A stretch of 64,000 bases of DNA from Myxococcota bacterium (GCA_039028615.1 JBCCHT010000005.1:128001-192000); one strand, 5' to 3'. Shown: positions 46,467 to 60,350, counted from the stretch's first letter. Notes: generated by a model from the letters alone, not told the origin. Numbers and translations are program-made.

Positions 46467-46629
46467 CAGCCGGGGCTCCGTACGGTTCAGTCACCTGCCG
46501 TGGCGTCGCCCATTCACCCTGCGGTCGATGAGCGGCAGGAGGCTACTGGCGGCTTCGGACGGGGTTTGGCGGGGCGGTGAATAGTCGCGGGGGCGCGGGG
46601 TGACCTACGAAGGCCGAGACCAAGCCCCC

Positions 46630-47847
46630 ATGAACTCGACCCTTCATCGGATCTTCAACGCGCTCTCTCCGTCCCTCGCCGCCTCGCTCGGAATCGTGGT
46701 GGTGGCTGGGGGGTGCTCGACCGGAGAGGCGCTCACCGACCAGGTCGACACGCTCGCACCTGGGCTGGCGGATGGAGGCGCGTCGGGAGGCGGCGATGCC
46801 GGTCCGGCCGATCCCGGCGGAGAACCCGACTGCGAGATCGGGACCCTCGGGTGCTGGTGCATGTTGGACGCCGATTGCGACGCCGGCTTGGTCTGCGATC
46901 AAGGCATCTGCCTGCCGGTCGAGGGCATCTGCGGCGACGGGGTCGTCGACGAGGCCGAAGAGTGCGACGCGGGCCCGGACAACGCCGAGGATGGAGCATG
47001 TCGGCCCGACTGCACGGCGCAGCTGTGCGGAGACGGGGTCGTGGGACCGGGCGAGGCCTGCGACGACGGCAACGACGTCGACGACGACGAGTGCAACAAC
47101 CTGTGCGGCGGCAGCAGCTGCGGCAACGGGGTGCTGGACGAGGGCGAGGAGTGCGACGACTCCAACCTCGACGATTCCGACGAGTGCCTCAGCTCGTGCC
47201 TCGCGGCCACGTGCGGCGACGGCTTCGTGCAGGCGGGGGTCGAGGAGTGCGACGACGCCGATGAAGACGAAGCGGACGGGTGCGCCGCAGATTGCGTCTG
47301 CTGGCTCGATTTCGAGGACGACGCCCAGGTGGTCGATTGGCAGCTCGAGGGCGGCTGGGAGCTCCACGACGCGGCCCCGGCCAGCCAGGTGCTCGCGGCC
47401 GTGCCCTTCGAGACGCAGGGCCGGGTCTTCGGCACCGACGGCAACCGCTCGTTGCCGTACCCCGGCGGCGAGAGTGAGAGCTCGAGCGCGACCACCTCGG
47501 ACTTCGTCTTCCCCACGTCGCTGCGCTTTCGCTCGTGGCACGTGGACGAAGGCACGGTGACCGCGGTCGGTGTGGCCGACCACAAGCGCATTCTCGTCTC
47601 GGTCGATGTGGGCGCCACGTGGGAGCCCCTGGTCGACTGCCAGCTCGGTCCCAACGAGCAGCTGCCCTTCTGCCTGGAGTGGCTGGCCTCGCGCGAAGCC
47701 GACGACTGGGACGACGTCGAGATCGATACGTCGGCCTACGCGGGCATGATGGGGCGGCTGCGCTTCGAGTACGACACCGTCGACTCGTGCTGCACGGTCG
47801 AGCAGGGCTGGTTCCTCGACGATTTCGAGGCCTTCGGGTGTTCCTGA
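46630..47847 (+). CDS. Lipoprotein with four Myxococcus Cys-rich repeats and a C-terminal beta-sandwich
   Basis: AGGC lipobox; four CG[DN]G...CD units; LRFRSW, RLRFEY, GWFLDDF. Confidence 0.75.
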   Translation: MNSTLHRIFNALSPSLAASLGIVVVAGGCSTGEALTDQVDTLAPGLADGGASGGGDAGPADPGGEPDCEIGTLGCWCMLDADCDAGLVCDQGICLPVEGICGDGVVDEAEECDAGPDNAEDGACRPDCTAQLCGDGVVGPGEACDDGNDVDDDECNNLCGGSSCGNGVLDEGEECDDSNLDDSDECLSSCLAATCGDGFVQAGVEECDDADEDEADGCAADCVCWLDFEDDAQVVDWQLEGGWELHDAAPASQVLAAVPFETQGRVFGTDGNRSLPYPGGESESSSATTSDFVFPTSLRFRSWHVDEGTVTAVGVADHKRILVSVDVGATWEPLVDCQLGPNEQLPFCLEWLASREADDWDDVEIDTSAYAGMMGRLRFEYDTVDSCCTVEQGWFLDDFEAFGCS

Positions 47848-47905
47848 CCGACGGCGGTCCGGGGCCTCGACGCGGCGTGGCACAAAGCTGGTAGCCTCGT
47901 CTGCG

Positions 47906-49807
47906 GTGAACCAACCCCGCGAGGCCGCGATCCTCCCGGCTGCCCTCGAGGCCACGCTGGCCCCGTTGGCGGCCACCATCGGCCGCGCGCCGGGTTCGAC
48001 GATCCAGCCCCCGCAGCGCGCCCCAGACACGGCGGAGCGCGAGGCCCTGGCGGTCCTGGGCGGGCACGACGAGAACCTCGCGGGGCTGGAGCTCGAGGAC
48101 ACGCTGGGCACGGGCGGCATGGGCATCGTGCAACTGGCGTTGCAGCGTCGGCTCTACCGCAAGGTCGCGGTCAAGACGCTGCGAGAGGATCGCTTCGGCG
48201 AGGCGGCCGTGCTGGCGCTGATGCAGGAGGCGTGGATTACGGGCGCGCTCGAGCACCCGAACGTGATGCCGGTCTACGACATCGAGATCGACGCGCGCGG
48301 CCGGCCGATGGTCGTGCTCAAGCGCATCGAAGGCGAGCCGTGGACCGCGTTCATCGACGACCCCGCCCGTATCGAGCGCGAGCACCAGCAGGCCCCGCTG
48401 GCGTGGCACCTCGAGGTGTTCATGCAGGTCTGCAACGCGCTGCGCCTGGCGCACGAGCGCGGCATCCTGCATCGCGACATCAAGCCCGAGAACGTGATGA
48501 TCGGGGCCTACGGCGAGGTCTACCTGCTCGACTGGGGCATCGCGGTGAGCATGCGACCCGACGAGCACGAGCGGCTGCCGCAGGCCCGAGACGCCGACGC
48601 GGTGGCGGGCACGCCCTCGTATATGGCCCCGGAGATGATGGTCGGTGACGGCTCCCAGCTGGGGACGCATACCGACATCTACTTGCTGGGGGCGACGCTC
48701 TATCACGTGCTGGTGGGGCGGCCACCGCATCACGCGGAGACCCTCGGGGAGCTGGTCGCGAGCGCGACCCAGGTGCCCGAGCTGCCGGAGTCCGCCCCGG
48801 CCGAGCTCGTGGAGCTGTGCCGTCGCGCGATGGATCCCGAGCCTACGCGTCGCCCGGCCGACGTGGACGCGATCCTCGACGCCATCCGCATCTTCCTGCG
48901 GCATCGCAGCTCCACCGACCTGGCCGCCCGCGCCGAAGGGTCTCGGCTGGAGCTGGTGGAGATGCTCGACCACCCCGGCTCCGACCCGGTCGCGCATCGG
49001 CTCGAGGCGTACCAGCTGTTCACCGAGTGTCGCTTCGGTTTTCGCGAGGCGCTCGCCAGCTGGCCCGACAACGAGGCGGCGCGCCGAGGCCATCACGACG
49101 CGGTGCAGGCGATGATCGACTACGAACTCGCCAACGGCGACGCCTCGGCCGCGGCGGCGCTGTTGTCCGAGCTGCCCGACGCCGCCGACGACGTCCGTAC
49201 GCGGGTCCACGAGGCCTTGGCGGCGGCCGAGGCCGAAGCGGCCGAGCTCGAGCGGCTGCGCGCCCAGGCCCGCGACAGCGACCTGCGGGTCGGCGCCCGC
49301 ACCCGCACCTTCATCGTTTCGCTGCTAGGGATCCTGTTCGTGGGCATCCCGCTGTTCGGGCACATGGACGGCAACGAGGAGGACACCCGCCGCGCCCTCA
49401 CCTGGTTCCCGGTGGCGCTCCTGGCAATGCTGGTCGCGCTGCGCTGGTGGGCGCGCGAGTCGCTGGGCAAGACGGCGATCAACCGCCGGGTCATGTCCAC
49501 CGCCATGCTCATGGCCTTCGTGGAGATGGTGTTCGGCTTCGTCTTCGATGCCCTGAATGCGTCCAACGAGATCATCGAGCTCACCCACATGGTGGTGGGC
49601 ATGCTGATCACCGGGGTCTTGGCGATCCACATCGACCGGAGAATCGCGCTCACCCCGGTGGGCTATGCCCTCGCGCTGCTGGCCTGCGTGCCCTGGCTCG
49701 AGCTACGCCACGTGTGGTTCGCCATGGCCAACGCGGTCGTGACGGTGACCCTCATCGTGATCTGGCTGCCGCGCAACGACGAGCAGCGCCGCGCCTCGGC
49801 TTCGTGA
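47906..49807 (+). CDS. Ser/Thr protein kinase with C-terminal multi-TM domain
   Basis: LGTGGMGIV, VAVK, HRDIKPEN, LLDWG, GTPSYMAPE; about 5-6 hydrophobic helices at the C-terminus. Confidence 0.9.
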   Translation: MNQPREAAILPAALEATLAPLAATIGRAPGSTIQPPQRAPDTAEREALAVLGGHDENLAGLELEDTLGTGGMGIVQLALQRRLYRKVAVKTLREDRFGEAAVLALMQEAWITGALEHPNVMPVYDIEIDARGRPMVVLKRIEGEPWTAFIDDPARIEREHQQAPLAWHLEVFMQVCNALRLAHERGILHRDIKPENVMIGAYGEVYLLDWGIAVSMRPDEHERLPQARDADAVAGTPSYMAPEMMVGDGSQLGTHTDIYLLGATLYHVLVGRPPHHAETLGELVASATQVPELPESAPAELVELCRRAMDPEPTRRPADVDAILDAIRIFLRHRSSTDLAARAEGSRLELVEMLDHPGSDPVAHRLEAYQLFTECRFGFREALASWPDNEAARRGHHDAVQAMIDYELANGDASAAAALLSELPDAADDVRTRVHEALAAAEAEAAELERLRAQARDSDLRVGARTRTFIVSLLGILFVGIPLFGHMDGNEEDTRRALTWFPVALLAMLVALRWWARESLGKTAINRRVMSTAMLMAFVEMVFGFVFDALNASNEIIELTHMVVGMLITGVLAIHIDRRIALTPVGYALALLACVPWLELRHVWFAMANAVVTVTLIVIWLPRNDEQRRASAS

Positions 49808-49815
49808 TCGCCCGG

Positions 49816-52197
49816 TCAGGGGTCGATGGTCAGGAGCTGATCGCGCGGCACGTTGTTGAGCACCACCGTGTGATCGGTGGCGGGCCAGTACACCTCGACG
49901 CTGTGCACGGGAGCCAGGCCGTAGCCGAGCCCGAAGTGAGCGATGTTCTCGGCCTGCGCGAGGTAGTGGCTGGCCACCCCGATGTGCCGCATCATGATCG
50001 GCGCGCCGGGCTCGGTCTGTACGCGGACCACTGCGCCCACGCCCTGCGAGTTACCGCCCTGGCCACCCGCCCGGATGCCCAGCCACGATGCCACCTCGGC
50101 GTCGTTGCGATAAAAGCCCTGGATCTCGTGGTGCGAGTGCACCAGCACGTCGAGGTCGCCGTCGCGGTCGTAGTCGAAGGTGACCAGGCCGCGGCCCTCC
50201 CGGGTGAAGTCGATGCCGGCCGCGACCGCCATCTCGGTCCACGGACCCGGGCCGTCGTTGTGCCATAGCCGCAGCGGGTTGTCGGAGAAGCCGAAGCTCG
50301 GGTAGCCAGAGCCCAGGATGAGGTCGAGCGAGCCGTCGAGGTCCGCGTCGAACAGAGAGGTGCCCCAGCCCCAGTCGCCGAAGCGCACGCCGACGTCGTC
50401 GGTCGCGTCGTAGAAGTTCAGCCCGCCCTCGTTGCGATACATGCGGTTGCCGAAGAAGAACTGGCCCGGCCACCAGATCGACGACACGAACCAGTCGAGG
50501 TCGCCGTCGTTGTCGTAGTCGCCGAAGGTCGAGCCCATGCCCGCTTCGTCGGTGCCCACGCCGGCCACGTCGGTCATGTCGACAAAGCCGCCCGCGCCGT
50601 CGTTCCACCACAGGCGGCTGGTGCCGTAGTCCGCGGCGACGGCCAGCTCGGGATATCGATCGCCGTCGAGGTCGACGAACGCGGGCGAGAAGGGCCACGC
50701 GCCCTCCGGGGCCCCGACCGAAGCCGACACCGCCTGCATGTCGAGCCCGACCGCGAGCGTGACGTCTTCGAAGAAGCCGGGGCTGGCCGCGCCGAGGTTG
50801 TGCAGCAGCCGGAAGTGGTCTTCGCCTGGACCCAGCTCGATGTTCGAGTGCCACTCGCCCAGCAGCAGGTCCATGTAGCCGTCGAGGTCGTAGTCTCCGA
50901 CGGCCACGCTCATGCCCACGTGCGGGCGCAGCGTGGTGATGTCGGCCCCGCGAATGAGCGCCTCGTCGGTGAAGTGCCCCGTGCCGTCGTTGACGTAGAG
51001 GTAGTAGCGCATCTCGGCGACGACGGAGACCATGAGGTCGAGGTCGCCATCGCCTTCGATGTCGACCCAGGCCACGCCGCCCGTGGAGTAGGAATCGGTG
51101 AGGCCGGCCGAGGCCGCGACGTCGACGAAGGTCCCGTCGCCCTGGTTGTGGAGCAGCCAGTCGGGCCCGTTCATGCGGGTCATGTAGACGTCGGGCCACC
51201 CGTCGTTGTCGTAGTCGGCCACTGCGACCGCGCCCACGATGTAGTCCGGGGTGCAGTAGTTGCCCATCTCCCACGGCTCGGTGACGTCGTCGAGCGAGCA
51301 GAAGGGGGGCGGCAGCAGGTCACCCGCATCGAGGTCGAGGCCGGCTTCGATGGTCACGTCGGTGAACATCGGCAGCGGGATGTCGGGTGGCGGCGCGCCC
51401 AGGTCGAACAGCGGCGTGCCCACGTCCAACAAGGGATCGCCGCCCGAGCCCACGCCGCTGGTGCCTCCGGGATCCGTCGTTCCGACCCCGTCCGTGTCCG
51501 TGCCGCCCGTACCCCCGGATTCGCTGGTGAAGACGGTGTCGCTGGAGAAGTCGGTGTCGGTGAAGAAGGTATCGCCGCCCGTGGTGCCTCCCGAAAAATC
51601 GGTGGTGCCTCCAGAGAAGTCGGTGGTGCCTCCAGAGAAGTCGGTGGTGCCTCCAGAGAAGTCGGTGGTGCCACCCGAGAAGTCGGTGGTGCCTCCCGAA
51701 AAATCGGTCGTGCCGCCGCCCCCGAAGGTGCTGCCGCCGGAGAAGTCGGTCGTGCCACCGCCGCCGTCGGAACTCCCCCCGGGAAGCGTGGTCGCCGAGA
51801 CGGTGTCGCTGCCCGAGGCATCGGTGGTGCCACCGGGGAGATCGGTGGTGCCGGAGGACTCGGTCTGTGGCCCGCTTTCGCCCGAGTCCTCGGGGGGCGG
51901 CATGCCGTCGCCGCTGGACGAGTCGGTGCCAATCGAGTCGGCGCTGTCGATCCCCGCGGTGGTGTCGGTGGCCGCATCGGCGTTGCCGTGGTCGGTGCTC
52001 CCAGGGGAGCCGGTGGCGTTGCCCGTGGCCTGGCCGCTGGAACCATCGGCGTTCGGAGTCGCGGCCGAGGTGTTCGCGCTGGGGGTCGACGCGTCGTCGC
52101 CACTGGCCGTGGTCATCACCGGGACCGGGTCCGAGTCGACACAACCACCGGCGAGCACGATGGCAACGGAAACATGGAACCGACGAAGACCCAGCAT
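49816..52197 (-). CDS. CRTAC1/ASPIC-UnbV-like FG-GAP repeat lipoprotein
   Basis: LAGGC lipobox; long Ser/Thr/Gly linker; repeated DYDNDGWPD / DYDNDGDLD Ca-binding motifs; GVGAVVRV...AHFGLG...VEVYWP. Confidence 0.85.
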   Translation of the reverse strand: MLGLRRFHVSVAIVLAGGCVDSDPVPVMTTASGDDASTPSANTSAATPNADGSSGQATGNATGSPGSTDHGNADAATDTTAGIDSADSIGTDSSSGDGMPPPEDSGESGPQTESSGTTDLPGGTTDASGSDTVSATTLPGGSSDGGGGTTDFSGGSTFGGGGTTDFSGGTTDFSGGTTDFSGGTTDFSGGTTDFSGGTTDFSGGTTGGDTFFTDTDFSSDTVFTSESGGTGGTDTDGVGTTDPGGTSGVGSGGDPLLDVGTPLFDLGAPPPDIPLPMFTDVTIEAGLDLDAGDLLPPPFCSLDDVTEPWEMGNYCTPDYIVGAVAVADYDNDGWPDVYMTRMNGPDWLLHNQGDGTFVDVAASAGLTDSYSTGGVAWVDIEGDGDLDLMVSVVAEMRYYLYVNDGTGHFTDEALIRGADITTLRPHVGMSVAVGDYDLDGYMDLLLGEWHSNIELGPGEDHFRLLHNLGAASPGFFEDVTLAVGLDMQAVSASVGAPEGAWPFSPAFVDLDGDRYPELAVAADYGTSRLWWNDGAGGFVDMTDVAGVGTDEAGMGSTFGDYDNDGDLDWFVSSIWWPGQFFFGNRMYRNEGGLNFYDATDDVGVRFGDWGWGTSLFDADLDGSLDLILGSGYPSFGFSDNPLRLWHNDGPGPWTEMAVAAGIDFTREGRGLVTFDYDRDGDLDVLVHSHHEIQGFYRNDAEVASWLGIRAGGQGGNSQGVGAVVRVQTEPGAPIMMRHIGVASHYLAQAENIAHFGLGYGLAPVHSVEVYWPATDHTVVLNNVPRDQLLTIDP
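51581..51706 (-). repeat. Six tandem 21-bp coding repeats (GGTTDFS)
   Basis: Plus-strand unit gtggtgcctccagagaagtcg; three adjacent copies are identical. Confidence 0.95.
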
Positions 52198-52303
52198 GAG
52201 CGCGACCCCGATAGTGTAGGGCGACGCCCGCAGGCGATGCGAGAACGAAACTTCTCGGATTCGTGTCGAGGCGAAATGCCCCTTCGGAATCGCGCCCGGC
52301 CGG

Positions 52304-54376
52304 CTAAAACCGCAGCCCCATGACGAAGCCGGGCCAGACCCGCACCCGCACTTCATCGACGGTGCTGCGGTAGACCTGCGGACCCCATTGGTAGAAGCCC
52401 GGCCGGGAGAGCAGCTCGGTCGTGCCGCGGTCGACCAAGACGTTCACCGTCGGGCCACCGAACACCGTTAGTCGCGAGTACGGACTCCAGCCGACCATGA
52501 AGCGCAGCTTGCCCAGCGGATCGGGCGTGGTGGGCGTGGAGAGGCCGCGGAACACCGCATGCCACCCCAGATCGATGTCGACGAACATCTTGTGCTGCAG
52601 CGGCACGTGCCCGCCGAAGCCGGCGCCGACGCGCCAGCTCTGTCCCGTTCCCGCGGGATGGATGGCCCCTTCGATGAACGAGTAGGTGTAGGTCGCAGGG
52701 AGTCGTAGTGCGACCCCGATGGCCGCGTCGTCGCTCAGCGTGATCTCGGGATGGACATTGCCCTCTCGGGTCACCGAGACGAGGCCGACGCCGGCATCGG
52801 TGCGACCGGCGAAGTTGAGCAGACCGACCTGGGCGCCTTTGACGTCCTTGCCCACGTTGACCAGGCCGAGCTGGAGGCCACGCATGGTGCCCACGATGTC
52901 GACCAGGCCCATCTGCACGCCGGGCTCTACGGTCTCGGCGTAGTTGACCATCGAGCTTTGGAATCCGGCGACGGAGCTGGCGTGGTTGAAGAACATCGAC
53001 AGCTGGGCCCCGTCGACTTGCCCCGCGAGGTTGCCCACCGTCGACAGCTGGGCTCCGTTCATGGCGCCTCGCACCACGCTCGCGCCTCCGGCCAGGGCGG
53101 CGCCGTCGAGCTGATCGACGCGGCTCCACCCGAGGGCGAAGCTGACTTTGTTGCGCAGCTTCTTGCCCGACTGGTCTTGGCCGTTGAGGCTGAGCGGCGG
53201 GAACACCCCCACGTTGACGGGAATGGTGGTGAACTCCGCTTCGGGGTCGGTCGGCGGGGCCGTGTCCCCGCGCTGCACGGTGGACTCGCGATCGACCTTG
53301 GTCAGGGCGTCGGGTTCGAGCGCCGCCACGCCGTCGGGACGCAGGGTGAGCTCGCCTCGCCACAGGTCTTGGCCATCGTCGACCCGCACCTGGTAGTGCC
53401 CGGGCTCGAGCGCCAGCGCGACCGTGCCGGAGCCCGGAGGCTTGTACAGCTCGGCGGCCAGCTTGCCCGCATCGTTGCGCACCGAGATGCGCCCACCGAT
53501 CGCCGACGAAAGCTCGATGCGCGCGGTGGTCTCGCGCAGGTCGGTCATGACCAGGTCGCCGGAGCCCGCCAGCTGGATGTCGTACGCGGCATGCTGAGCG
53601 CCGCCGCGGGTGGTCTCGGTGCGCGCGAGGGTCTCGTCGAACGCGAACTGGTAGGCCTCCGAAAGCGTGATGAGACGGTCGCCGTCGACATCCGCCGCCC
53701 CGCGCAGTCCGGTGGTGAAGTAGTGGGTGAAGAACGAGCCGCCGATGCGATCGGATTCCTGTGCCGCCTCGTCGATGGAGCTGCTGGTGAGGAACGCGTG
53801 GCCTTTGACGTCGGTGGTGTTGCTGACCAAAAAGGGCGCCCGCTTCTTGCCGCCCTTGGCTCGGGTGAAGGCCCCCGAGGCGCACGAGTCGAGCACCGCG
53901 ATGCGAACGTCGGCCGGGACCTTCTGCACGCGCTGGCGGAGCTGCTTGTACGAGACCCGGTCGCCGCCGAGCAAAAGGCCCTGCTCGTCGGAGTGCCCCG
54001 AGTAGTAGAAGATGAACTGGACGTGCTGGCCGTCGGCGCGAGCGGCCTCGATGCGCTCGCTGAGGGTGGCGAAGGCCTCCTCGAGGGCGGCGGGATCGGG
54101 GTCGGTGAGGGTGGTGCGGTCGTGGCCCGAGACGCCGCCGAAGCGCTCGAGCACGGCCCCCAGCGCCGCCGCATCGCTGCCCGCGTAGCGCAGCACCACC
54201 CGGTCGTGCCCGCCGTCGTTGGCGCCCACGACCAGGGCGAAGCGGCGCAGCGCCGGGGTGGGCACGGTGGTCTCGGCCGTGGCGTCGGTGGGCTGAGCCT
54301 CGGCGATCGTCACCGCGCCCAGGGCCACGAAGGCCCCGGCGAGCAGCGAGGGAAGGGCGGACCACAGGCGAGTCAT
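52304..54376 (-). CDS. Exported caspase-family (C14-like) protease with beta-helix repeats and probable outer-membrane beta-barrel
   Basis: Signal peptide; RRFALVVGAN, LRYAGSDA, catalytic FYYSGH and VLDSCASG, SFFTH, ADVDGDRLITLSE; GxQxGxxN repeats; C-terminal GFVMGLRF. Confidence 0.88.
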   Translation of the reverse strand: MTRLWSALPSLLAGAFVALGAVTIAEAQPTDATAETTVPTPALRRFALVVGANDGGHDRVVLRYAGSDAAALGAVLERFGGVSGHDRTTLTDPDPAALEEAFATLSERIEAARADGQHVQFIFYYSGHSDEQGLLLGGDRVSYKQLRQRVQKVPADVRIAVLDSCASGAFTRAKGGKKRAPFLVSNTTDVKGHAFLTSSSIDEAAQESDRIGGSFFTHYFTTGLRGAADVDGDRLITLSEAYQFAFDETLARTETTRGGAQHAAYDIQLAGSGDLVMTDLRETTARIELSSAIGGRISVRNDAGKLAAELYKPPGSGTVALALEPGHYQVRVDDGQDLWRGELTLRPDGVAALEPDALTKVDRESTVQRGDTAPPTDPEAEFTTIPVNVGVFPPLSLNGQDQSGKKLRNKVSFALGWSRVDQLDGAALAGGASVVRGAMNGAQLSTVGNLAGQVDGAQLSMFFNHASSVAGFQSSMVNYAETVEPGVQMGLVDIVGTMRGLQLGLVNVGKDVKGAQVGLLNFAGRTDAGVGLVSVTREGNVHPEITLSDDAAIGVALRLPATYTYSFIEGAIHPAGTGQSWRVGAGFGGHVPLQHKMFVDIDLGWHAVFRGLSTPTTPDPLGKLRFMVGWSPYSRLTVFGGPTVNVLVDRGTTELLSRPGFYQWGPQVYRSTVDEVRVRVWPGFVMGLRF

Positions 54377-54936
54377 GGGCGCTTTTCGAGCGTGACGGAG
54401 CGTTGTTGCCAGCGACGGGGCAAGGGCAGGGGAGAGTGTCGCGCGTCGGGGCCTCGGGTCGTCACCCGCTGCGCGGCATCGAGGGCCGCGGGCACGTCGA
54501 TGGGATCGTGACCCGAAGTGATGAAGACGAACCGTTCATAGGATTGTGCATCGTCGAGCTCGTAGGCGTGATCCAGCGCATGGAGGCCGGTGCGAACGAG
54601 GCGAGTCGATGCCTGGGGACCCGAAGGATGGTGCAAGGTCACTTCTCCTCGACCATCGATCGACAGCACGACCCCGTGTTGGTTGCCTGCCGCCACATAG
54701 CTTATCTGCACCAGATCTCCGGCATGCGCCACGGCACCCTCGGACAGCTCTTCGATAGTCCCGTCACGCTGCCGATGGATCACCAGATGTGGCGCCAAAC
54801 CTTTGATTCGGACCGGATCCGTCCGGTCCTCGTCGCGCGGGTCCGCAGGCGCCGGGCGCTCGCGGTCGGGCTCGATGGGGGTGCAGGCGACCGCGAGCGC
54901 AAGCACCGCAAACCACATGGGGATGAGCTTCGGCAT
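54373..54936 (-). CDS. Lipoprotein consisting of a DUF4384/ActD-like domain
   Basis: LAVAC lipobox; RIKG...GDLVQISY...VVLSIDGRGEVTLHHP...AYELDDAQSYERFVF; stop overlaps the caspase ATG. Confidence 0.75.
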   Translation of the reverse strand: MPKLIPMWFAVLALAVACTPIEPDRERPAPADPRDEDRTDPVRIKGLAPHLVIHRQRDGTIEELSEGAVAHAGDLVQISYVAAGNQHGVVLSIDGRGEVTLHHPSGPQASTRLVRTGLHALDHAYELDDAQSYERFVFITSGHDPIDVPAALDAAQRVTTRGPDARHSPLPLPRRWQQRSVTLEKRP

Positions 54937-54952
54937 CCTCGTCGCCCCCTTC

Positions 54953-54979
54953 AACACCGACGCGGCCCGTCCCTGTCCC
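54953..54979 (-). promoter_or_regulatory. Putative ECF promoter, copy 1 (lipoprotein-caspase operon)
   Basis: Minus strand GGGACAG-N12-TCGGTGTT, 16 nt upstream of ATG 54936. Confidence 0.65.
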
Positions 54980-55004
54980 CGGGTTGAGATTTTTGAGGGC
55001 AAGT

Positions 55005-55031
55005 GTGACGCTTCGGCCCGCCTTCGGTGTT
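55005..55031 (+). promoter_or_regulatory. Putative ECF promoter, copy 2 (sigma/anti-sigma, autoregulatory)
   Basis: GTGACGC-N12-TCGGTGTT, 26 nt upstream of the sigma start. Confidence 0.75.
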
Positions 55032-55057
55032 GCACGGACCGGACGCGGGGCACCCCT

Positions 55058-55555
55058 TTGGCCGTCGACGTCGATTTGATGTACCGCCGCTACGGACCGA
55101 TGGTCCTACGGCGCTGTCGGCAGATCCTCGGGGATCCGCAGCAGGCTCATGACGCCATGCAGGATGTCTTCGTACAGCTCGTGCGCAGCCAGGAGCGCCT
55201 CGACGATCGGGGCAGCTCCAGCCTGCTTTACCGCATGGCCACCAACCATTGTCTCAACCGACTGCGCTCGGCCCGGCGCAAGCCCTCCGATCCCGATACC
55301 GACGCCATCGCCCGCCTGGCCGCGGCGGGGGCCGAGGTCGATCGCGGCGAGGCCCGGGCGGTGCTCCGTCGGCTCTTCGGGGGCGAGCCCGAGTCGACCG
55401 CCACCATCGCGATGCTGCACCTGCACGACGGCCTGACCCTCGAGCAGACGGCGGAGCAGGTGGGCATGTCCGTCTCCGGGGTGCGCAAGCGCCTCCGCAA
55501 GCTCCGGGCCGCGCTCACCGATCTGTCGGCCGACGCCGCCGAGGTACGACCATGA
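55058..55555 (+). CDS. ECF RNA polymerase sigma factor
   Basis: TTG start (MAVDVDLMYRRYGPMVLRRC); region 2 AHDAMQDVFV...LLYRMATNHCLN; region 4 DGLTLEQTAEQVGMSVSGVRKRL. Confidence 0.9.
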   Translation: MAVDVDLMYRRYGPMVLRRCRQILGDPQQAHDAMQDVFVQLVRSQERLDDRGSSSLLYRMATNHCLNRLRSARRKPSDPDTDAIARLAAAGAEVDRGEARAVLRRLFGGEPESTATIAMLHLHDGLTLEQTAEQVGMSVSGVRKRLRKLRAALTDLSADAAEVRP

Positions 55556-56412
55556 ACGAACCGTCGCCCAAGCCCGTGCCCGATCTATGGGTAGAGAAGC
55601 TCGCGCTCGGTGAGCTTCCCGAGGCGGAGGCCGAGGCCCTGCGCGCGCGGCTCGAGGCCGATGGAGACGAGCGACTCGTGGCGATCGAGCACTCGAACGA
55701 GGCCATCTTGCGCGAGCATCCACCGGCCGAGGTCGCCGCCGAGATCGAGCGACGCCTGCGAAGGCTGGAGACCGAGGCCGAAGCGCCGAGACGCCCGATG
55801 TTCTGGGTCTGGGCGCCCGTGGCCGCCGTCGCCTGTGTCGGCGTGATCTGGTTGGTGAGAGGGGCCGGCTCGTCCGACGAGGGCCTCGCTTCGAAGCCGG
55901 ATTCCGAGCTCATCGCCCGCGGCGATCCGAGACCGACGGTGGACTCCGCGGGGGCAGCCGCCGATGCTGGTCCGGAGACCATCTATCTCAAGGGCGACCC
56001 CCAGCTCATCGTCGATCGCATCGAGGCGGGACGTCTCGTTCGCATGGATGCCGAGCACGCGGTGGCCTCGGGGGACCGGCTCCAGCTGGCGTACTTGGCC
56101 AACGGTGCGGCGACGGGGGTCATCGTCTCCATCGACGGGGCCGGGGTGGCCACGCTTCATTTCCCCGAGACGGAAACCGCGGCTGCGACGCTTCGCCACG
56201 GAGGGTCGATACCTCTGCGCACGAGCTACGAGCTCGACGACGCCCCCGACTACGAGCGCTTCTTCTTCGTGACGGCCGACGAGTCCGCGAAGCTGAGCGC
56301 GGCGCGGGTCATGGACGCCGCACGGGCGCTGGCCGGGAGCCCCACGGCGCAGCAGGGCTCGCTCGAGCTGCCCGCGGCGTGGCGTCAGCAATCGTTGACG
56401 CTGCGCAAGTAG
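55552..56412 (+). CDS. Putative anti-sigma factor: N-terminal helical domain, one TM, periplasmic DUF4384-like domain
   Basis: ATGA overlap with the sigma stop; PDLWVEKLALGELP; TM WVWAPVAAVACVGVIWLV; YLKG...GDRLQLAY...IVSIDGAGVATLHFP...SYELDDAPDYERFFF. Confidence 0.8.
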   Translation: MNEPSPKPVPDLWVEKLALGELPEAEAEALRARLEADGDERLVAIEHSNEAILREHPPAEVAAEIERRLRRLETEAEAPRRPMFWVWAPVAAVACVGVIWLVRGAGSSDEGLASKPDSELIARGDPRPTVDSAGAAADAGPETIYLKGDPQLIVDRIEAGRLVRMDAEHAVASGDRLQLAYLANGAATGVIVSIDGAGVATLHFPETETAAATLRHGGSIPLRTSYELDDAPDYERFFFVTADESAKLSAARVMDAARALAGSPTAQQGSLELPAAWRQQSLTLRK

Positions 56413-56454
56413 CCGCCGCGAGTGTGACCTCGATCGCACCTGGGTCGGATCGAG

Positions 56455-56481
56455 GTGACGCGAACTCGGAGCGTCGGTGTT
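56455..56481 (+). promoter_or_regulatory. Putative ECF promoter, copy 3 (Cys-rich lipoprotein)
   Basis: GTGACGC-N12-TCGGTGTT, both boxes and spacing identical to copy 2; 10 nt upstream of ATG 56492. Confidence 0.75.
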
Positions 56482-56491
56482 CGAGGGAGTG

Positions 56492-57346
56492 ATGACAAAC
56501 CCGCTCTTGAACCTACGCTTGGACTTCATCCGCCGTCGCTGGGCCCTGGGAGGCCTGTTGGGTCTGGGACTCGGACTCGGCTGCACCTATACCGAGATCG
56601 GCGACTACCACGGCGTCGAGGCGTGCCACGACGAGTTCTTCGACTGTCTGGACGACGCCGACGACGAAAAGGACATCGAGGCCTGCGAGGTCGCCAAAGA
56701 CTCCTGTCTCGAGGCGTGCGTCGATGATGACGATTGGCGCGGCGACGAGGACGACGACGACAATGTCGACGATGCAGGCGACGACGCGGGGGCGGGCGAT
56801 GACGGAGACGAGCCCCCGGGAGACGACGGGCGGGTGCCGGATGATGACGGCGGAGCCGATGACGGCGGGGCCGATGACGGCGGGGCCGATGACGGCGGGG
56901 CCGATGATGGCGGAGCCGACGACGGGGGAGCCGACGGCGGTGGCGAGCCGCATCCCGCCTGCTTCGAGCTGCACGCGACCTGCGTGAGCCAGGCGACCAC
57001 CATCGCCGAGGTCGAGGCCTGCGAGGCGCTCTTCGACCAGTGCCTGGAAGCCGAGGAATGCGACGACACCTGCAAGGATCCGGCGTGCCCCGATCCCGAG
57101 GTCAGCGCGTGCCTCGAGATCCACGCCGCCTGCTCGGCGTCGGCGAGCTCGCCCGATGTGGTCGCGGCCTGCGGGGCGGCCTTCGATGCCTGCGTGCAGG
57201 GCATCGACGACTCGGCCTGTGTGCCGCACGACCCGTCCATCGTCGACGCGTGTCTCGAGCAGCATGAGCTGTGCACGACGTGCATCGAGGGCCCCGAAGA
57301 CCTCTGGGTTTGCCAGGACGTCTTCGATGCATGCCTGGCGGGGTAG
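56492..57346 (+). CDS. Acidic lipoprotein with four twin-CX6C helical-hairpin repeats
   Basis: GLGC lipobox; CHDEFFDC/CEVAKDSC, CFELHATC/CEALFDQC, CLEIHAAC/CGAAFDAC, CLEQHELC/CQDVFDAC. Confidence 0.75.
   Translation: MTNPLLNLRLDFIRRRWALGGLLGLGLGLGCTYTEIGDYHGVEACHDEFFDCLDDADDEKDIEACEVAKDSCLEACVDDDDWRGDEDDDDNVDDAGDDAGAGDDGDEPPGDDGRVPDDDGGADDGGADDGGADDGGADDGGADDGGADGGGEPHPACFELHATCVSQATTIAEVEACEALFDQCLEAEECDDTCKDPACPDPEVSACLEIHAACSASASSPDVVAACGAAFDACVQGIDDSACVPHDPSIVDACLEQHELCTTCIEGPEDLWVCQDVFDACLAG
56843..56932 (+). repeat. Six tandem 15-bp coding repeats (DDGGA)
   Basis: gatgacggcggggcc unit and variants. Confidence 0.9.
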
Positions 57347-57351
57347 GCCCG

Positions 57352-57389
57352 GGCCGGCCCGTAGCGTCGCTGCGGGCCGGCCACTTTTT
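57352..57389 (+). terminator. Intrinsic terminator closing the ECF module
   Basis: ggccggcccg / cgggccggcc stem followed by acttttt. Confidence 0.8.
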
Positions 57390-57400
57390 GAGCGGCCGCC

Positions 57401-58603
57401 TCAGCGCACGAACAGGTTGAGCGCGTAGTTGGGGTTGAGCGCGGTGTTCTCGGTGTTCTCGGCGAAGTCGCGCTCTTCGAGAAAGGTGGAGCCGGAGTCG
57501 AACGAAGCTTGGTTGACCGCGGTGGTGCCGATGCCATGGTCGGCTCGGGAGCACAGTTCGCCTCCTCCCCCGATCATGATCACCGCCCCGTCGCCGGACC
57601 CCCACGCCGCCCAGAACGAGACCGAGTAGGGCCCGCCGATGTCGGCCAGATCGCAGGTAGCTTGGCCGAAGCCTTCCGTCGCGGCGTAGTTGTTGCCGAG
57701 GTCGACGTCGCAGCTTCCGGCCACGGAGTTCTGGCCCCAGACCGCGCCGTTTTGGAAGTCGCCGAAGCTGGTGATGTGCTCGCGGAAGGTCCCCCCGCCG
57801 AGGCAGTCGTCGGTGGTCTGGAGCAGGAAGCCGTCGTCGGGGTTGTCGGTGCGCGAGAGCTTGAACTCGTCGGCGGGCACGGACCAGAACGCGGCCGAGA
57901 GCAGGTCCTCGTTGGCGTCGCGCGAGGTCGGCTGCCCCGATTCGACGGTGGTGACGTACCACCACTCGCCGCTGTCGAGCATCCAGCTCTCGGCGTCGGC
58001 GTTCGAGAAACGAGCGGCGAGGGTCCAGCCGCCGTCGTCGGTCTCCATGTCGCAGTACACGCTGAAGGGTGCTTCGCCGCCCGTCCCGTCGGGATCGATG
58101 ACATAGGCTCCGCTGCCGACGCTGGGCTCGACTTCGATGATGTGCTGGCAGGTCAGGGCGACGGTGCAGTCGGGCAGGCAGCCGTCGTCGAACTCGAGGT
58201 TACCGTCGTCGCACTGCTCGAGCGGCTCGAGCCGCCCGTTGCCGCAGGCCGGCTGCTGCTCGCCGGAGTCGGTGGATTCGTCTTCCTCTCCGCCCTCCGA
58301 GCCTTCCGAGGAGCCCACCGAGGCCCCGGGCAACAGGCCGCTCGTCGTGGAGTCGGCGACATCGGTGGTCGACGCATTCGAAGGCGAGTCGCCCGTGCTC
58401 GAGCCGAGCGACGGTCGTTCCGTGTCCATGGCACCTGCCGTCGTGCTGCCTCCTGAGAGAGGGTCGTTGCCGAACGCCGGGTTCGGCCTCGTGCACGAGG
58501 TCGCCGCGAGCACCATGGTGAGTGCAATGAGTCGATTCAATGGGCTGACGTCCTTCCGCGATTCAGAGCCGGGCCAACCCCCTTTGTAGTCGGGTCCCTT
58601 CAT
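57401..58603 (-). CDS. Lipoprotein with Cys-rich repeat and fibrinogen-C/intelectin-like domain (start possibly TTG 58540)
   Basis: ATSC lipobox; CGNGRLEPLEQCDDGN; SGAYVIDP...VYCDMETDDGGWTL. Confidence 0.8.
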   Translation of the reverse strand: MKGPDYKGGWPGSESRKDVSPLNRLIALTMVLAATSCTRPNPAFGNDPLSGGSTTAGAMDTERPSLGSSTGDSPSNASTTDVADSTTSGLLPGASVGSSEGSEGGEEDESTDSGEQQPACGNGRLEPLEQCDDGNLEFDDGCLPDCTVALTCQHIIEVEPSVGSGAYVIDPDGTGGEAPFSVYCDMETDDGGWTLAARFSNADAESWMLDSGEWWYVTTVESGQPTSRDANEDLLSAAFWSVPADEFKLSRTDNPDDGFLLQTTDDCLGGGTFREHITSFGDFQNGAVWGQNSVAGSCDVDLGNNYAATEGFGQATCDLADIGGPYSVSFWAAWGSGDGAVIMIGGGGELCSRADHGIGTTAVNQASFDSGSTFLEERDFAENTENTALNPNYALNLFVR

Positions 58604-58796
58604 CTGGTTACGACCGAAACTCGATGAGTTTGGCCGAAGTCTCAGGTCGCCATGATGGGGCTGAATCCCTGCTTCAGCGGTCGATTACGGGGTTCAGCTC
58701 GAAAGTCGCCGTCCACTCGGACCACCGCATCATCTACGGTTCGTCCCATCGTCCAGACCTACGCCGACTGGCAGAGTCGGCCAAGTGTGACATCGA

Positions 58797-60350
58797 TCAG
58801 TCGACCCATCCTTGCAGGAACCAACTTCGTCGGACTCGGTCGTAGAACACCCACAAGATTTCACCGGATTGGGTCTCGACGAAGTAGTAGTCCCGCTCGA
58901 CCGTGCGCACCCACCATCCTCCGCTGATGCGATAGGGCCCCTGGATCGAGCGGACCGGGCCGCGATGACCGAGCCAGGCCTCGGGTTCATGACGAGGGGG
59001 GCTGGGCAATCGCTGGGGCCGAGGCAGCAGGCGGCGGACCAGCGGTGTCGGCTCGGGAGCGGGGGGCTGGGTGCCCGGCTCGATCGGAGTGCCCACGACC
59101 TCGGGACGCGCGAAGCCGATCTCGCCGATGGGCTCCCACGCAAAGCGAGCCTCGGGCAGGTGGGCTTCGCGGAGCTGAGCGCGGGTGACCGCCTCGGGCC
59201 CCAGCCAGGCACGGAGCCGTGCGAGGGCTCGGGCGGCGGCATCGAGATCGCGGCGGGCCTGGGTTCGGAACAACGCCAGCTGCCCCGGTGCGGCCTCGAC
59301 CCCGGCCAGCTCCAGCACGATTTCCTCCACGGGGGCGTCCAGGGTCGCGGCATCGAGGCGCAGGCGAACCAGATCGATCACCATTGGCTCGTCCAGGGTC
59401 GGGCGCGCGGGCTCGATGCGTTCTTCGTGCGGCTCGGCGTGGTCGAGGTGCAGGCGCAGGTGCAGCGCGGTCATGGCCTGGTGGCGCCCCGCGAGCTCGA
59501 CCATCAGGTCGTGCAGCATGCTCTTGATGAGGAAGAGCAGCCGCGAACGGTCGTCGTCGGGCGGCTCGATCTGCTTGGTGGTGCGAACCGGATCGACGAT
59601 GGCGCGGGGCTGAAGCGGAGCCCAGCCATCGCTGGCGCAGGCGTGCAGCTGGGCCGCCGCCTCTCCGAAGCGCGCCCGCAGGTCGGGAGCGGGGAGGGCG
59701 AGCAGCTGCCCCAAGGTCCGAACCTCGAGTCGCCGGAGCCCCTCGCGAGCCTTGGCCGGCATCGATAGCTCGACCAGCGGCACCTGGTCGGCGGCCTTCC
59801 GCTCCGCGCCCGGATCGTCGAGTACCCACACGCCCCGCCGAACCCGAGCCAGCGCGTGACATCGAAATCGGTGGTAGCCCACGACCACCGTCGAGCGCAG
59901 CGACAGCTCGGCCATCGCGCTGACGACCGCGTGACCCCAGTGCTCGAAGCTGGTGAACAAGGGCACCATGCCCGAGGGGTCGAGCCAGAAGGTCCCGGGT
60001 GCGCCCTCGACCTGTCGCTGCGGGGTGGCGGTGCGTTGGGCGGCCTCGATGCGCGGCGAAAAATCCTGCAGGCGTCGGACCACCTGCTCGATCGTCTCGT
60101 CGATCTGCTCGGGTCCCACCACACCCGCCCGGACCCCCGCGTCCAGGCTCTGCGCGGCGGCGTAGCTCATGCCGGGACGAATGCGGGATCGTTGCGCGTG
60201 CTCGTTGACCCACTGCACCTCGGCTTGCGGGCGGTCGTCGGCGACCACCACCACCGCGCTGTTGGCCCACGTCGGCTCGCGGCGCAGCAGCAGCTGGAGA
60301 GGTAACGCCGGCACTTCGAGGCATGCGGCACGGTCGTGAAGGGCGGACAT
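58797..60350 (-). CDS. imuB: ImuB, catalytically inactive Y-family polymerase
   Basis: ACLEVPALPLQ, VNEHAQRSRIRPGM, FSPRIE, LRRLEVRTLGQLLALP...RFG, GPYRISGGWW, ERDYY, WFLQGWVD. Confidence 0.9.
   Translation of the reverse strand: MSALHDRAACLEVPALPLQLLLRREPTWANSAVVVVADDRPQAEVQWVNEHAQRSRIRPGMSYAAAQSLDAGVRAGVVGPEQIDETIEQVVRRLQDFSPRIEAAQRTATPQRQVEGAPGTFWLDPSGMVPLFTSFEHWGHAVVSAMAELSLRSTVVVGYHRFRCHALARVRRGVWVLDDPGAERKAADQVPLVELSMPAKAREGLRRLEVRTLGQLLALPAPDLRARFGEAAAQLHACASDGWAPLQPRAIVDPVRTTKQIEPPDDDRSRLLFLIKSMLHDLMVELAGRHQAMTALHLRLHLDHAEPHEERIEPARPTLDEPMVIDLVRLRLDAATLDAPVEEIVLELAGVEAAPGQLALFRTQARRDLDAAARALARLRAWLGPEAVTRAQLREAHLPEARFAWEPIGEIGFARPEVVGTPIEPGTQPPAPEPTPLVRRLLPRPQRLPSPPRHEPEAWLGHRGPVRSIQGPYRISGGWWVRTVERDYYFVETQSGEILWVFYDRVRRSWFLQGWVD

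Follow-up and report, generated by a model that had tools for sequence, protein, structure and literature searches.

How might a sigma factor be controlled by a caspase that is exported to the cell envelope? This question is raised by five genes (52304..57389) in a 64,000-nucleotide stretch of Myxococcota DNA, referred to here as the window, which encode an ECF sigma factor, a predicted anti-sigma factor, an exported caspase-family protease and two lipoproteins. For most bacterial caspases, we know of no substrate.

Gene organisation and recurrence of the cassette

The sequence-only reading had described these genes as a five-part, trans-envelope signalling system. Its anatomy was confirmed, including all genes and coordinates, the ATGA overlaps of both the sigma/anti-sigma and the lipoprotein/caspase gene pairs, the SGH/DSC dyad and the C-terminal Phe of the caspase; the codon bias of the five genes is gene-like (GC3 0.72-0.90). 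Signal peptides and lipoboxes were assigned by eye and hydropathy. The features are as follows:

52304..54376, minus strand: exported caspase-family (C14) protease, 690 aa (Pfam, model)
52307..52762, minus strand: 8-stranded beta-barrel, residues 539-690 (strand and loop pattern)
52769..53233, minus strand: beta-helix stalk, residues 382-536, GxQ repeats, LA_2272-type
53267..53272, minus strand: R369-G370, candidate release site at the junction of protease part and membrane anchor
53294..53521, minus strand: Ig-like beta-sandwich, residues 286-361, following the caspase domain (strands in model)
53531..54250, minus strand: caspase domain, residues 43-282, with H128/C165 dyad (SGH, DSC), D68 and D163
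53852..53863, minus strand: R-x-K174-G, candidate activation (self-processing) site in the loop after the catalytic Cys
54373..54936, minus strand: lipoprotein, ectodomain paralogue (sequence comparison)
54953..54979, minus strand: promoter-like GGGAC-N15-CGGTGTT of the lipoprotein-caspase operon
55005..55031, plus strand: promoter-like GTGAC-N15-CGGTGTT of the sigma/anti-sigma operon (putative autoregulation)
55058..55555, plus strand: ECF sigma factor, 165 aa (Sigma70_r2, TIGR02937; probable TTG start)
55552..56412, plus strand: predicted single-pass anti-sigma factor, ActD-like, 286 aa
55990..55995, plus strand: K147-G148, candidate site-1 cleavage site of the anti-sigma factor
56455..56481, plus strand: promoter-like GTGAC-N15-CGGTGTT of the Cys-rich lipoprotein gene
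56492..57346, plus strand: acidic Cys-rich predicted lipoprotein
57352..57382, plus strand: terminator-like hairpin 3' of the Cys-rich gene

The location of the hairpin fits a terminator, and its occurrence (1 found, shuffle mean 2.0) is no higher than chance. The neighbours scanned from 45456 to 60350 carry domains other than Cas7-11/Csx29/Csx30 or SAVED-CHAT.

Co-occurrence was surveyed in 120 anti-sigma loci, 80 close and 40 distant, the latter chosen by their anti-sigma match only; homologues were collected through their sequence similarity, and the counts include kin, which are not independent. The fetched DNA contained a caspase gene in 63 of the 80 close loci (53 on the same strand, 10 divergent as in the window) and in 39 of the 40 distant ones, bearing out the association of sigma factor, anti-sigma factor and caspase. 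No caspase was found in the fetched DNA of 17/80 close loci and one distant locus (L118). All five genomes with a caspase-less locus that were followed up encode a 58-63% identical caspase elsewhere, and the promoter pattern described below lies in the fetched DNA of 3/7 loci holding these close caspases. Of the 201 genomes of the phylum that were sampled, 83 contain matches. The conserved core comprises three genes, encoding the ECF sigma factor, the anti-sigma factor with a DUF4384-related ectodomain and the exported caspase. A five-part system was overdrawn: a paralogous exported protein carrying an ectodomain copy is present in 7/120 loci, and a homologue of the Cys-rich lipoprotein (23 Cys, 28% Asp+Glu; E 4e-35) adjoins the cassette only in L063. 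The latter protein does follow the cassette and carry the shared promoter, but this proposed effector recurs in only 1/120 loci; its likely place is among several variable lipoproteins of the regulon, accessory rather than core.

The sigma factor matches Sigma70_r2 above the cut-off (E 2.6e-16), Sigma70_r4_2 under it (E 1.4e-4) and TIGR02937 with 69 bits (cut-off 42.9), and its small size (165 aa) with regions 2 and 4 only places it among ECF sigma factors. The promoter motif said to be common to the three transcription units was found at 55005(+), 56455(+) and 54979(-), and it is spacer-specific: G[TG]GAC-N15-CGGTGTT has 16 matches in the genome at spacer 15, versus 1-8 at spacers 12-14 and 16-19, and 71 across 845,668 bases from related loci, versus 1-4 at other spacers. 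Furthermore, the sigma operon's own upstream promoter is conserved in orthologues. The sigma factor in all likelihood uses GTGAC-N15-CGGTGTT promoters. Its predicted regulon consists of exported lipoproteins, including two beta-lactamase-family hydrolases, and barrel-only paralogues under predicted sigma control occur in 16/80 loci.

Caspase and anti-sigma domains and a shared Lys/Arg-Gly motif

The caspase matches Pfam Peptidase_C14 (E 2.3e-10), and its AlphaFold2 model (mean pLDDT 85) shows, after the signal peptide, a caspase domain, an Ig-like domain, a beta-helix and an 8-stranded barrel ending in Phe, confirming the C-terminal barrel expected from sequence. The caspase domain aligns with metacaspase 4 (Z 18.1, rmsd 3.1, 208 residues), and the caspase fold with its His-Cys dyad places the protein in Peptidase C14, meta/orthocaspase type. 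H128, C165, D68 and D163 are invariant in 102/102 caspases. D68 aligns with the Asp of the metacaspase GCxND motif, and D68 and D163 presumably correspond to the residues that form the acidic pocket in metacaspases cutting after Arg/Lys. Metacaspase-type homologues are described as cleaving after Arg/Lys (PMC8283722). The protein is likely to be an active Lys/Arg-specific protease. The top structural matches in Foldseek, obtained with a query larger than the Ig-like domain, were MALT1 caspase-Ig3 and gingipain; this Ig-like domain had gone unmentioned in the earlier reading.

The stalk matches NF047436 (E 2.4e-8) and the HxuA secretion domain (Z 12.3); the close-family HMM found no such stalk in the 40 distant loci. 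The barrel resembles those of NspA (Z 14.2, rmsd 2.3, 132 aligned) and OprF (Z 14.1). The last residue is Phe in 82/102 caspases and Ile, Leu or Tyr in the others, and the N-terminus is hydrophobic in 86/102. Eight antiparallel strands, a C-terminal aromatic or hydrophobic residue and a signal peptide characterise an OmpA/NspA-type barrel, which in the model would anchor the caspase in the outer membrane with its protease part in the periplasm.

The anti-sigma factor consists of a zinc-less relative of the ZAS domain, a TM helix (~84-105), a disordered stem with K147-G148 and an Ig-like ectodomain. The zinc motif HxxxCxxC is absent from this protein (P0004) and present in 114/149 distant anti-sigma representatives, whose profile aligns with it end to end (probability 99.96). 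The N-terminal helical domain, the single TM helix (70/84 relatives pass hydropathy 1.6) and the sigma-coupled gene are class I/ZAS traits, and the ActD-like protein is most probably an anti-sigma factor. Its ectodomain is paralogous to the lipoprotein, as proposed (35% over 173 aa, E 6e-27). The DUF4384 likeness attributed to both proteins stood only at family level: neither the lipoprotein (P0002) nor P0004 matches PF14326 at E<=0.05, a threshold passed by 16/84 close relatives (best 3.4e-5) and 24/41 distant ones (best 1.5e-9). [quoted passage not shown]

Three flexible sites, namely the anti-sigma stem, the caspase loop after the catalytic Cys and the caspase/barrel junction, carry a near-invariant Lys/Arg-Gly motif, which recurs in the window lipoprotein. 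Position 147 of the anti-sigma factor is Lys in 84/84 close relatives and Lys or Arg in 149/149 cluster representatives; [KR][GSAT] stands at the expected place in 84/87 close and 37/38 distant ectodomains, against 7-33/87 and 4-12/38 in seven shifted control windows. In the caspase, whose fold is a different one, the motif is fixed twice: K174/G175 is kept in 102/102 sequences and in 62/62 and 38/38 scored loci, with a disordered loop at 176-187 (pLDDT <50), and R369-G370 is kept in 102/102, with K/R-G in 38/39 distant caspases and pLDDT <50 at residues 367-372. The lipoprotein combines Cys18, an R-I-K45-G stem motif and a copy of the anti-sigma ectodomain; among 61 lipoprotein-type relatives without the anti-sigma domain, 52 carry RxKG and 45 a lipobox by pattern. 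A third, divergent cassette in the same genome, read by eye, has Arg-Gly at all three sites; the motif is common to the three cassettes of this genome and therefore cannot alone confer specificity.

Exceptions to the motif are L124, L108 (R-W-M-G), P0363 and four of the 61 lipoprotein-type relatives. Among the distant loci, a single family accounts for the five R/R cases.

Complex prediction for caspase residues 40-372 with ectodomain residues 132-286 gave a score of 0.38, compared with 0.01 for the best of three controls; runs agreed in at least 76% of contacts, and the partners had pLDDT of at least 83. The mark applied was reached by 116/157 solved and 2/215 mismatched pairs, with 18 solved pairs and both mismatches at scores of 0.60 or below. 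The pairing stood out from its controls, but a score of 0.38 falls in a range that without a prior is more often wrong than right, and no interface was obtained.

Proposed mechanism and competing explanations

Taken as a whole, the cassette may be a self-regulated envelope module working by regulated proteolysis, to which we assign a probability of about 0.58. At rest, the inner-membrane anti-sigma factor would hold the ECF sigma factor, while the exported caspase would be held at the outer membrane through its barrel, the protease part lying in the periplasm. On a cue, the caspase would process itself after K174 and cleave the anti-sigma factor after K147, so that the Ig-like cap is lost; both cuts are suggested by the acidic pocket and the shared Lys/Arg-Gly motif, and it is on balance probable that the caspase cuts the anti-sigma factor, with self-processing and a site-1 role rated about the same. 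On the same grounds, the caspase would also be released from its anchor after R369, a step rated at somewhat less than even odds. An RseP-type protease would complete the proteolysis, by analogy with DdvA; the genome has five M50 protease matches. The sigma factor would then transcribe its GTGAC-N15-CGGTGTT promoters, which serve the sigma operon itself, the caspase, a barrel paralogue without protease part and several exported lipoproteins. The lipoprotein with motif and ectodomain would most likely damp the loop as a decoy substrate, although this assignment is tentative.

The earlier reading is supported in part, by conserved co-occurrence, envelope topology, a shared sigma-type promoter and a plausible cut site in the anti-sigma stem. 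Its tethered receptor-protease fared less well, since an enzyme held at the outer membrane may miss a site ~18-25 residues from the inner membrane, making release from the barrel likelier. That the barrel binds an outside ligand is doubtful. The fuller version, in which the barrel is a receptor for an outside cue and clustering switches the caspase on, as happens with initiator caspases or MALT1, so that it frees itself, traverses the periplasm and cuts the anti-sigma factor at Lys-Gly, is unlikely; there, the sigma-induced barrel-only paralogues would be decoy receptors and motif-bearing lipoproteins decoy substrates.

The logic could also run in reverse, with the Lys-Gly stem and Ig-like domain acting as a docking site or pseudo-substrate inhibitor of a caspase that is itself a sigma-induced output on other envelope proteins, the sigma factor being freed by another route. 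Securin inhibits separase in a parallel manner, and PCi inhibits PCaspase (10.1101/2023.06.23.546230). A free ectodomain copy is co-transcribed with the caspase, four of 61 lipoprotein copies lack the Lys yet are kept, binding without cutting would agree with the weak complex score, and Ig-like domains, macroglobulin domains among them, are structural matches of the ectodomain at only middling Z (7-9). K147 lies only four residues before the first ectodomain strand and structural matches begin at 145-149; it may therefore serve in folding or docking, which counts against the proposed cut. Against the reversed logic, the motif also occurs in the caspase post-Cys loop and at the anchor junction, where it is most naturally read as a cleavage site, and Lys and Arg swap freely while the basic residue is never lost in 149/149 anti-sigma factors; inhibition is rather improbable.

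It is distinctly improbable that the caspase is an amplifier and the barrel only an anchor, the first Lys/Arg-Gly cut being made by an outside or periplasmic trypsin-like protease (the cell's own, or one from prey, a competitor or phage) or the trigger being failed barrel assembly. PCaspase is indeed activated in trans by another protease (10.1101/2023.06.23.546230), barrels are divergent enough that the close-family HMM finds none in 40 distant loci, the predicted regulon fits envelope upkeep, and the window encodes a trypsin-family protein; yet no conserved partner protease appears among the loci read, and the barrel-only paralogues suggest a role of the barrel's own. Display or secretion of the protease part at the surface, where it would never meet the anti-sigma factor and the genes would simply form one regulon, is very improbable. 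The order of passenger, beta-helix and barrel is reminiscent of type V secretion, two-partner-secretion domains are among the matches of the beta-helix (Z 11-12), and R369 could be a shedding site. Classical autotransporter barrels, however, have 12 strands, whereas this one is an 8-stranded NspA/OmpA-like barrel whose turns are short on the side where both termini lie, and the shared motif and tight gene coupling in 39/40 distant loci would be left unexplained.

Relation to known systems

Operons of sigma-70 and metacaspase genes were reported in 2012 by Asplund-Samuelsson et al. (PMC3501461) in Myxococcus xanthus DK1622, Anaeromyxobacter, Haliangium, Sorangium, Ralstonia and Fibrobacter. Matched by description, those conserved in myxobacteria very probably belong to the same cassette family; the available text describes them without anti-sigma factor, barrel, promoter, motif or mechanism, and discusses a possible role in cell death.

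By analogy, DdvA/DdvS of M. xanthus is a conceptual precedent for this cassette, with an ECF sigma factor, a single-pass ZAS-type anti-sigma factor, a periplasmic caspase-fold protease proposed for site 1 and RseP shown to be the site-2 protease (PMC11506125). The periplasmic TPR-CHAT of DdvA, proposed to be its own site-1 protease (PMC11506125), was missed by the earlier statement, which placed known caspase-like control of a sigma inhibitor only in the cytoplasm. Unlike the 991-aa DdvA, which contains its TPR-CHAT, the 286-aa window anti-sigma factor has a small Ig-like cap without fused TPR-CHAT, and its protease is a separate C14 barrel enzyme; DdvS drives CBASS/CRISPR genes, whereas the predicted targets here are exported lipoproteins.

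In type III-E systems (10.1101/2022.08.17.504292), Csx29 likewise cuts the RpoE-binding protein Csx30 ahead of its C-terminal domain, which is DUF4384 in one group, but this TPR-CHAT enzyme is cytoplasmic, RNA-triggered and mounted on Cas7-11, and is described without export, barrel or a transmembrane anti-sigma factor of the window family. The SAVED-CHAT/PCaspase/PCi/PCc-sigma system of Haliangium ochraceum (10.1101/2023.06.23.546230) shares a myxobacterial C14 caspase activated by cleavage and encoded together with a sigma factor and with an inhibitor that doubles as a substrate; PCaspase, however, is described as cytoplasmic, cA3-triggered, broad in specificity and lethal and cuts the sigma factor itself, and the CI-2-like PCi had no homologues. 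The textbook FecA/FecR/FecI and RseA/DegS/RseP systems similarly combine an outer-membrane component, an inner-membrane anti-sigma factor, an ECF sigma factor and two-step proteolysis. The cassette differs in lacking a TonB-dependent 22-stranded receptor, a FecR domain and a PDZ serine protease, and in that the predicted protease and the outer-membrane protein are one and the same.

The M. xanthus act operon comprises five co-transcribed genes with positive feedback on C-signal (PMC3824092). In two Myxococcus loci (L019, L040), genes for a GGDEF response regulator, a sigma-54-type activator and an epimerase/GNAT precede the anti-sigma homologue, itself directly preceded by the same promoter motif, and the caspase-barrel gene; the anti-sigma homologue of L019 shares 88% identity with a protein named ActD. 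Judged by sequence similarity, Myxococcus actD and the next gene are homologues of the window anti-sigma and caspase genes. Unlike the window, act loci have their sigma gene elsewhere (sigma, anti-sigma and a small barrel lie by dnaN in L029 and L046), and the window cassette lacks actA-C. Deletion of actD reportedly delays the C-signal rise.

The homologous actD region has long-standing links to C-signalling, with a mechanism absent from the literature covered. Were the barrel a receptor, the cassette would represent a bacterial receptor-caspase pathway with transcription, not death, as its output, found across thousands of sequence clusters; ActD and its neighbour would then acquire a molecular function in the timing of development in Myxococcus. 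Anti-sigma K147, enzyme C165 and a promoter reporter make the caspase-to-sigma pathway directly testable in the genetic model M. xanthus. If the proposed mechanism is true, an outer-membrane-anchored caspase would constitute a new class of site-1 protease, in a family of 4,075 clusters at E<=1e-30.

Genes and predicted architecture of the locus

The locus belongs to a genome of 12.3 Mb, and the nearest named relatives of its proteins are found in Nannocystaceae-type myxobacteria, e.g. Paraliomyxa miuraensis (55–62% identity). The gene layout agrees with the two divergent operons plus a third gene described in the sequence-only reading:

52304-54376, minus strand: caspase, 690 aa, with an ATGA overlap with the lipoprotein gene
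54373-54936, minus strand: lipoprotein, 187 aa
55058-55555, plus strand: ECF sigma factor, with an ATGA overlap with the anti-sigma gene
55552-56412, plus strand: single-pass membrane protein (putative anti-sigma), 286 aa
56492-57346, plus strand: acidic Cys-rich predicted lipoprotein, next after the anti-sigma gene

An exported FG-GAP/ASPIC-UnbV protein with GGTTDFS repeats is encoded on the strand of the caspase gene, ~100 bases downstream of it (49816-52203, minus strand); it is not conserved beside the cassette, homologues being present near one of the loci compared (L094). A gene at 58797-60350 (minus strand), with a weak IMS-family match (E 0.037), resembles an ImuB-type mutagenesis gene.

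The caspase model, built on a 102-sequence alignment (mean pLDDT 85, pTM 0.53), comprises four parts: a caspase domain (residues 43-282), an Ig-like domain (286-361), a beta-helix (382-536) and an 8-stranded barrel (539-690). The C-terminal barrel anticipated from the sequence was thus recovered, and structure comparison of the model revealed its resemblance to NspA (Z 14.2, rmsd 2.3, 132 aligned). Its short turns share a side with the two termini, and its longer loops lie opposite. The periplasmic and outer sides of a barrel can be assigned from turn and loop lengths, and this topology would leave the protease part hanging in the periplasm. The caspase domain was closest to metacaspase 4 (Z 18.1, rmsd 3.1, 208 aligned), and MALT1 was ranked first by Foldseek. 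Residues H128, C165, D68 and D163 were invariant in 102/102 caspase sequences, with D68 aligned with the GCxND Asp of metacaspases, enzymes described in the available portion of PMC8283722 as cutting after Arg/Lys. In L050/L137 (Archangium violaceum) and L105, the caspase gene appears truncated or spread over two frames, through a frameshift or an assembly error.

In the putative anti-sigma, the N-terminal domain is helical and is followed by a hydrophobic stretch (residues ~84-105) and then a disordered stem; the Ig-like domain starts near residue 148. The lipoprotein carries the same stem motif and ectodomain on its own, as a free copy. The ectodomain had been considered DUF4384-like. Neither protein matches the Pfam model, and the direct assignment was dropped; among relatives, 16/84 close and 24/41 distant ones match it (E<=0.05). 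No Foldseek match to the anti-sigma was obtained at E<=0.001, and its best structural comparison (Z 9.0) fell among many Ig-like folds; the Csx30 chain was absent among the 50 matches listed, which is uninformative either way. A true DUF4384 protein (40.9 bits), with KRG/HRG words near its C-terminus, is encoded on contig C23 of the same genome (L007:571-1986, plus strand), directly preceded by a gene whose product, judged by a motif, appears CHAT-like.

Conservation of the sigma/anti-sigma/caspase cassette

The gene neighbourhood was surveyed at 80 close loci, i.e., the best 80 of 406 confirmed anti-sigma matches in GTDB genomes, and at 40 distant loci, i.e., weak anti-sigma matches picked by eye from ~145 rows (E ~1e-26 to 1e-9, long matches favoured) and meant as a less biased test of co-occurrence. 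Within these best 80 of 406, the fetched DNA contained the caspase at 63 loci (53 on the same strand, 10 divergent as in the window) and the sigma gene just upstream of the anti-sigma gene at 66, and a barrel-only paralogue, related to the caspase and lacking its protease part, was present at 16. All five genomes searched from the 17 caspase-less close loci carry the caspase elsewhere (58-63% identical). At the distant loci, an adjacent caspase and a sigma gene were each found in 39/40 cases, and the co-occurrence expected by the sequence-only reading is supported in both sets.

The proposal of a five-gene system was rejected, since its other two members are patchy across the 120 loci: an exported ectodomain-only paralogue occurs at 7/80 close loci (best 80 of 406; L073, with a truncated anti-sigma, excluded) and was not seen at the 40 distant ones, and the Cys-rich protein occurs at 1/120, a count to be read with several close loci ending at contig ends. 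Structural queries with the Cys-rich protein gave no match over TM 0.5 (normalised by query), and its atlas hits (0.76) were under the lead threshold.

The distant loci represent a second subfamily without the beta-helix, whose predicted C-terminal barrels were recognised by the way the sequences end. The family profile of the window anti-sigma aligned end to end with this subfamily (probability 99.96); the ZAS zinc motif, absent from the window anti-sigma, is kept by 114/149 of its members. In Myxococcaceae the cassette is split, with sigma, anti-sigma and a small barrel by dnaN (L029, L046) and, at a separate place (L019, L040), promoter, anti-sigma and caspase; judging by the dnaN locus tag, the dnaN-linked pair is presumably MXAN_0233/MXAN_0234. 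Anti-sigma family matches were present in 83/201 sampled genomes of the phylum, and the family comprises 4,075 clusters at E<=1e-30. Record titles among the matches include spirochaetes, Fermentibacteria and Aminicenantaceae, with some MAG labels appearing mis-binned. Loci L054, L070, L077 and L082, labelled Eubacteriales, Enterobacterales or Clostridia, carry versions that resemble those from other phyla, in some cases almost to identity (L054 with L087; L077 with L032 and L035), and, as mis-binning may explain their labels, were not counted as evidence of range. Two further cassettes are encoded in the same genome:

L001:4747-7548 (contig C24), minus strand: sigma/anti-sigma/exported caspase; ZAS zinc motif and Lys-Gly sites kept
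L003:3275-7065 (contig C29), minus strand: sigma/anti-sigma/exported caspase; Arg-Gly at all three sites (by eye)

A shared Lys/Arg-Gly motif and the proposed proteolytic switch

The anti-sigma stem ends in K147-G148 (K in 84/84), and K or R occupies this site, with G, A, S or T next to it, in 149/149 representatives of <50% mutual identity. This set leaves out P0363, an anti-sigma-like protein of 758 aa in which the N-terminal domain is doubled, the ectodomain forms four tandem repeats and the Lys-Gly motif is lacking. The stem motif was at its expected place in 84/87 close and 37/38 distant ectodomains; the corresponding counts for shifted windows were 7-33 and 4-12. Offsets in the alignment account for the three close misses, L124 is a truly doubtful case, and L108, outside the 38, has R-W-M-G. 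Its usual form is R-x-K-G, with Tyr at the R position in the window copy, and RxKG is found in 52/61 of the lipoprotein family. In the caspase, the motif recurs nine residues after the catalytic Cys (K174) in 102/102 sequences and in 62/62 and 38/38 of the loci scored (L008 and L105 are incomplete), and R369-G370 precedes the anchor in 102/102 caspases (K/R-G in 38/39 distant ones). Covariation of K/R between the anti-sigma and the caspase junction was discarded as a weak signal, because the five R/R cases seen by eye all come from one family. Fixed in flexible segments of two unrelated folds, beside a protease with a predicted basic-residue pocket, the motif is best read as a putative cleavage code.

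On this basis, we propose, with a probability of roughly 0.58, a regulated proteolysis in which the caspase would process itself at K174, and probably be processed at R369, and would cut the anti-sigma at K147 as the site-1 protease; an RseP-type protease would make the second cut (M50 genes are present in the genome), the sigma factor would autoregulate its own system, and decoys would provide feedback. The motif lies a median of 25 (close) and 18 (distant) residues from the membrane helix, and ~45 in the window; given this short distance and a distant subfamily devoid of the stalk, release of the caspase from the barrel appears likelier than a tethered enzyme spanning the periplasm.

For caspase 40-372 modelled together with ectodomain 132-286, the complex prediction gave a score of 0.38, against 0.01 for the best of three controls, with runs sharing at least 76% of contacts and partner pLDDT of at least 83. 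The complex mark was reached by 116/157 solved and 2/215 mismatched pairs, and at <=0.60 by 18 solved pairs and both mismatches only. The score clears the controls, and the tool rates it as weak support; the two proteins may form a complex, in which the ectodomain would fit as substrate or inhibitor alike. An ectodomain that acts as an inhibitor of the caspase instead of being the switch agrees equally with this score; we regard this alternative as unlikely. That the first cut comes from a different protease or from failed assembly of the barrel, which would then be just an anchor, is improbable. A surface-exposed protease appears highly improbable, as the short turns on the side of the termini point to the periplasm. 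Caspase-driven regulated proteolysis is the preferred reading.

Promoter, predicted output and relation to known systems

Across the 80 close loci, the motif G[TG]GAC-N15-CGGTGT occurred 71 times at spacer 15, versus 1-4 times at the seven alternative spacers, mostly just before sigma, anti-sigma, caspase or barrel genes. A promoter matrix derived from 69 sites of other genomes, partly circular because its core columns were fixed by the search pattern, gave 17 matches of at least 15 bits in the genome. The top eight comprised the three window sites, which upholds the suggestion of a common promoter for the three units, four predicted lipoproteins (two beta-lactamase-family, one YHS-like below the cut-off, one without family) and, with the highest score, the following gene:

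L002:4276-5553 (contig C3), minus strand: protease-less beta-helix/barrel paralogue, 42% identical to caspase residues 373-690

Most of the other nine matches had no convincing gene behind them. With a barrel paralogue and lipoproteins as top targets, the sigma output looks like exported proteins, the Cys-rich gene being one such candidate target. A scan for sigma-70 consensus promoters found none. Predicted target start codons lie ~8-16 bases after the second promoter element (L128-L131; window 54936, 56492), implying very short or no leaders. Elsewhere, the same promoter precedes copper monooxygenase-like lipoproteins (L020, L031, L058) and, in other loci, a TonB-dependent receptor, ExbB-like, CotH or DUF4097 gene.

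ActD is a homologue of the anti-sigma, and the gene that follows actD in the five-gene act operon encodes a homologue of the caspase. In the portions of the sources available to us, conserved sigma-70/metacaspase operons are reported without mechanism in M. xanthus and other genera (Asplund-Samuelsson et al. 2012, PMC3501461), ECF25 anti-sigmas may carry DUF4384 (PMC7826278, supplement), MXAN_0233 is a sigma factor (PMC6617876), and development is accompanied by a depletion of insertions in MXAN_0234, a putative anti-sigma (2026 preprint). The Csx29/Csx30/RpoE (10.1101/2022.08.17.504292) and PCaspase/PCi/PCc-sigma (10.1101/2023.06.23.546230) systems are described there as cytoplasmic. The available parts of PMC11980068, PMC12288465 and 10.1101/2025.11.14.688446 hold nothing on the cassette, and no paper describing its mechanism was found in the literature searched, most subscription journals being outside its coverage. 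DdvA, according to the accessible text of PMC11506125, is a single-pass anti-sigma whose periplasmic caspase-like domain is proposed to serve as the site-1 protease for DdvA itself, and the action of RseP has been demonstrated. The cassette falls outside the DdvA system, although its proposed anti-sigma proteolysis would be alike.

In summary, the cassette is real and conserved, and its mechanism, as far as seen, is uncharacterised in the literature searched. By analogy, it would work like anti-sigma proteolysis, and what sets it apart from the DdvA system is a separate, barrel-anchored caspase with a common Lys/Arg-Gly code.
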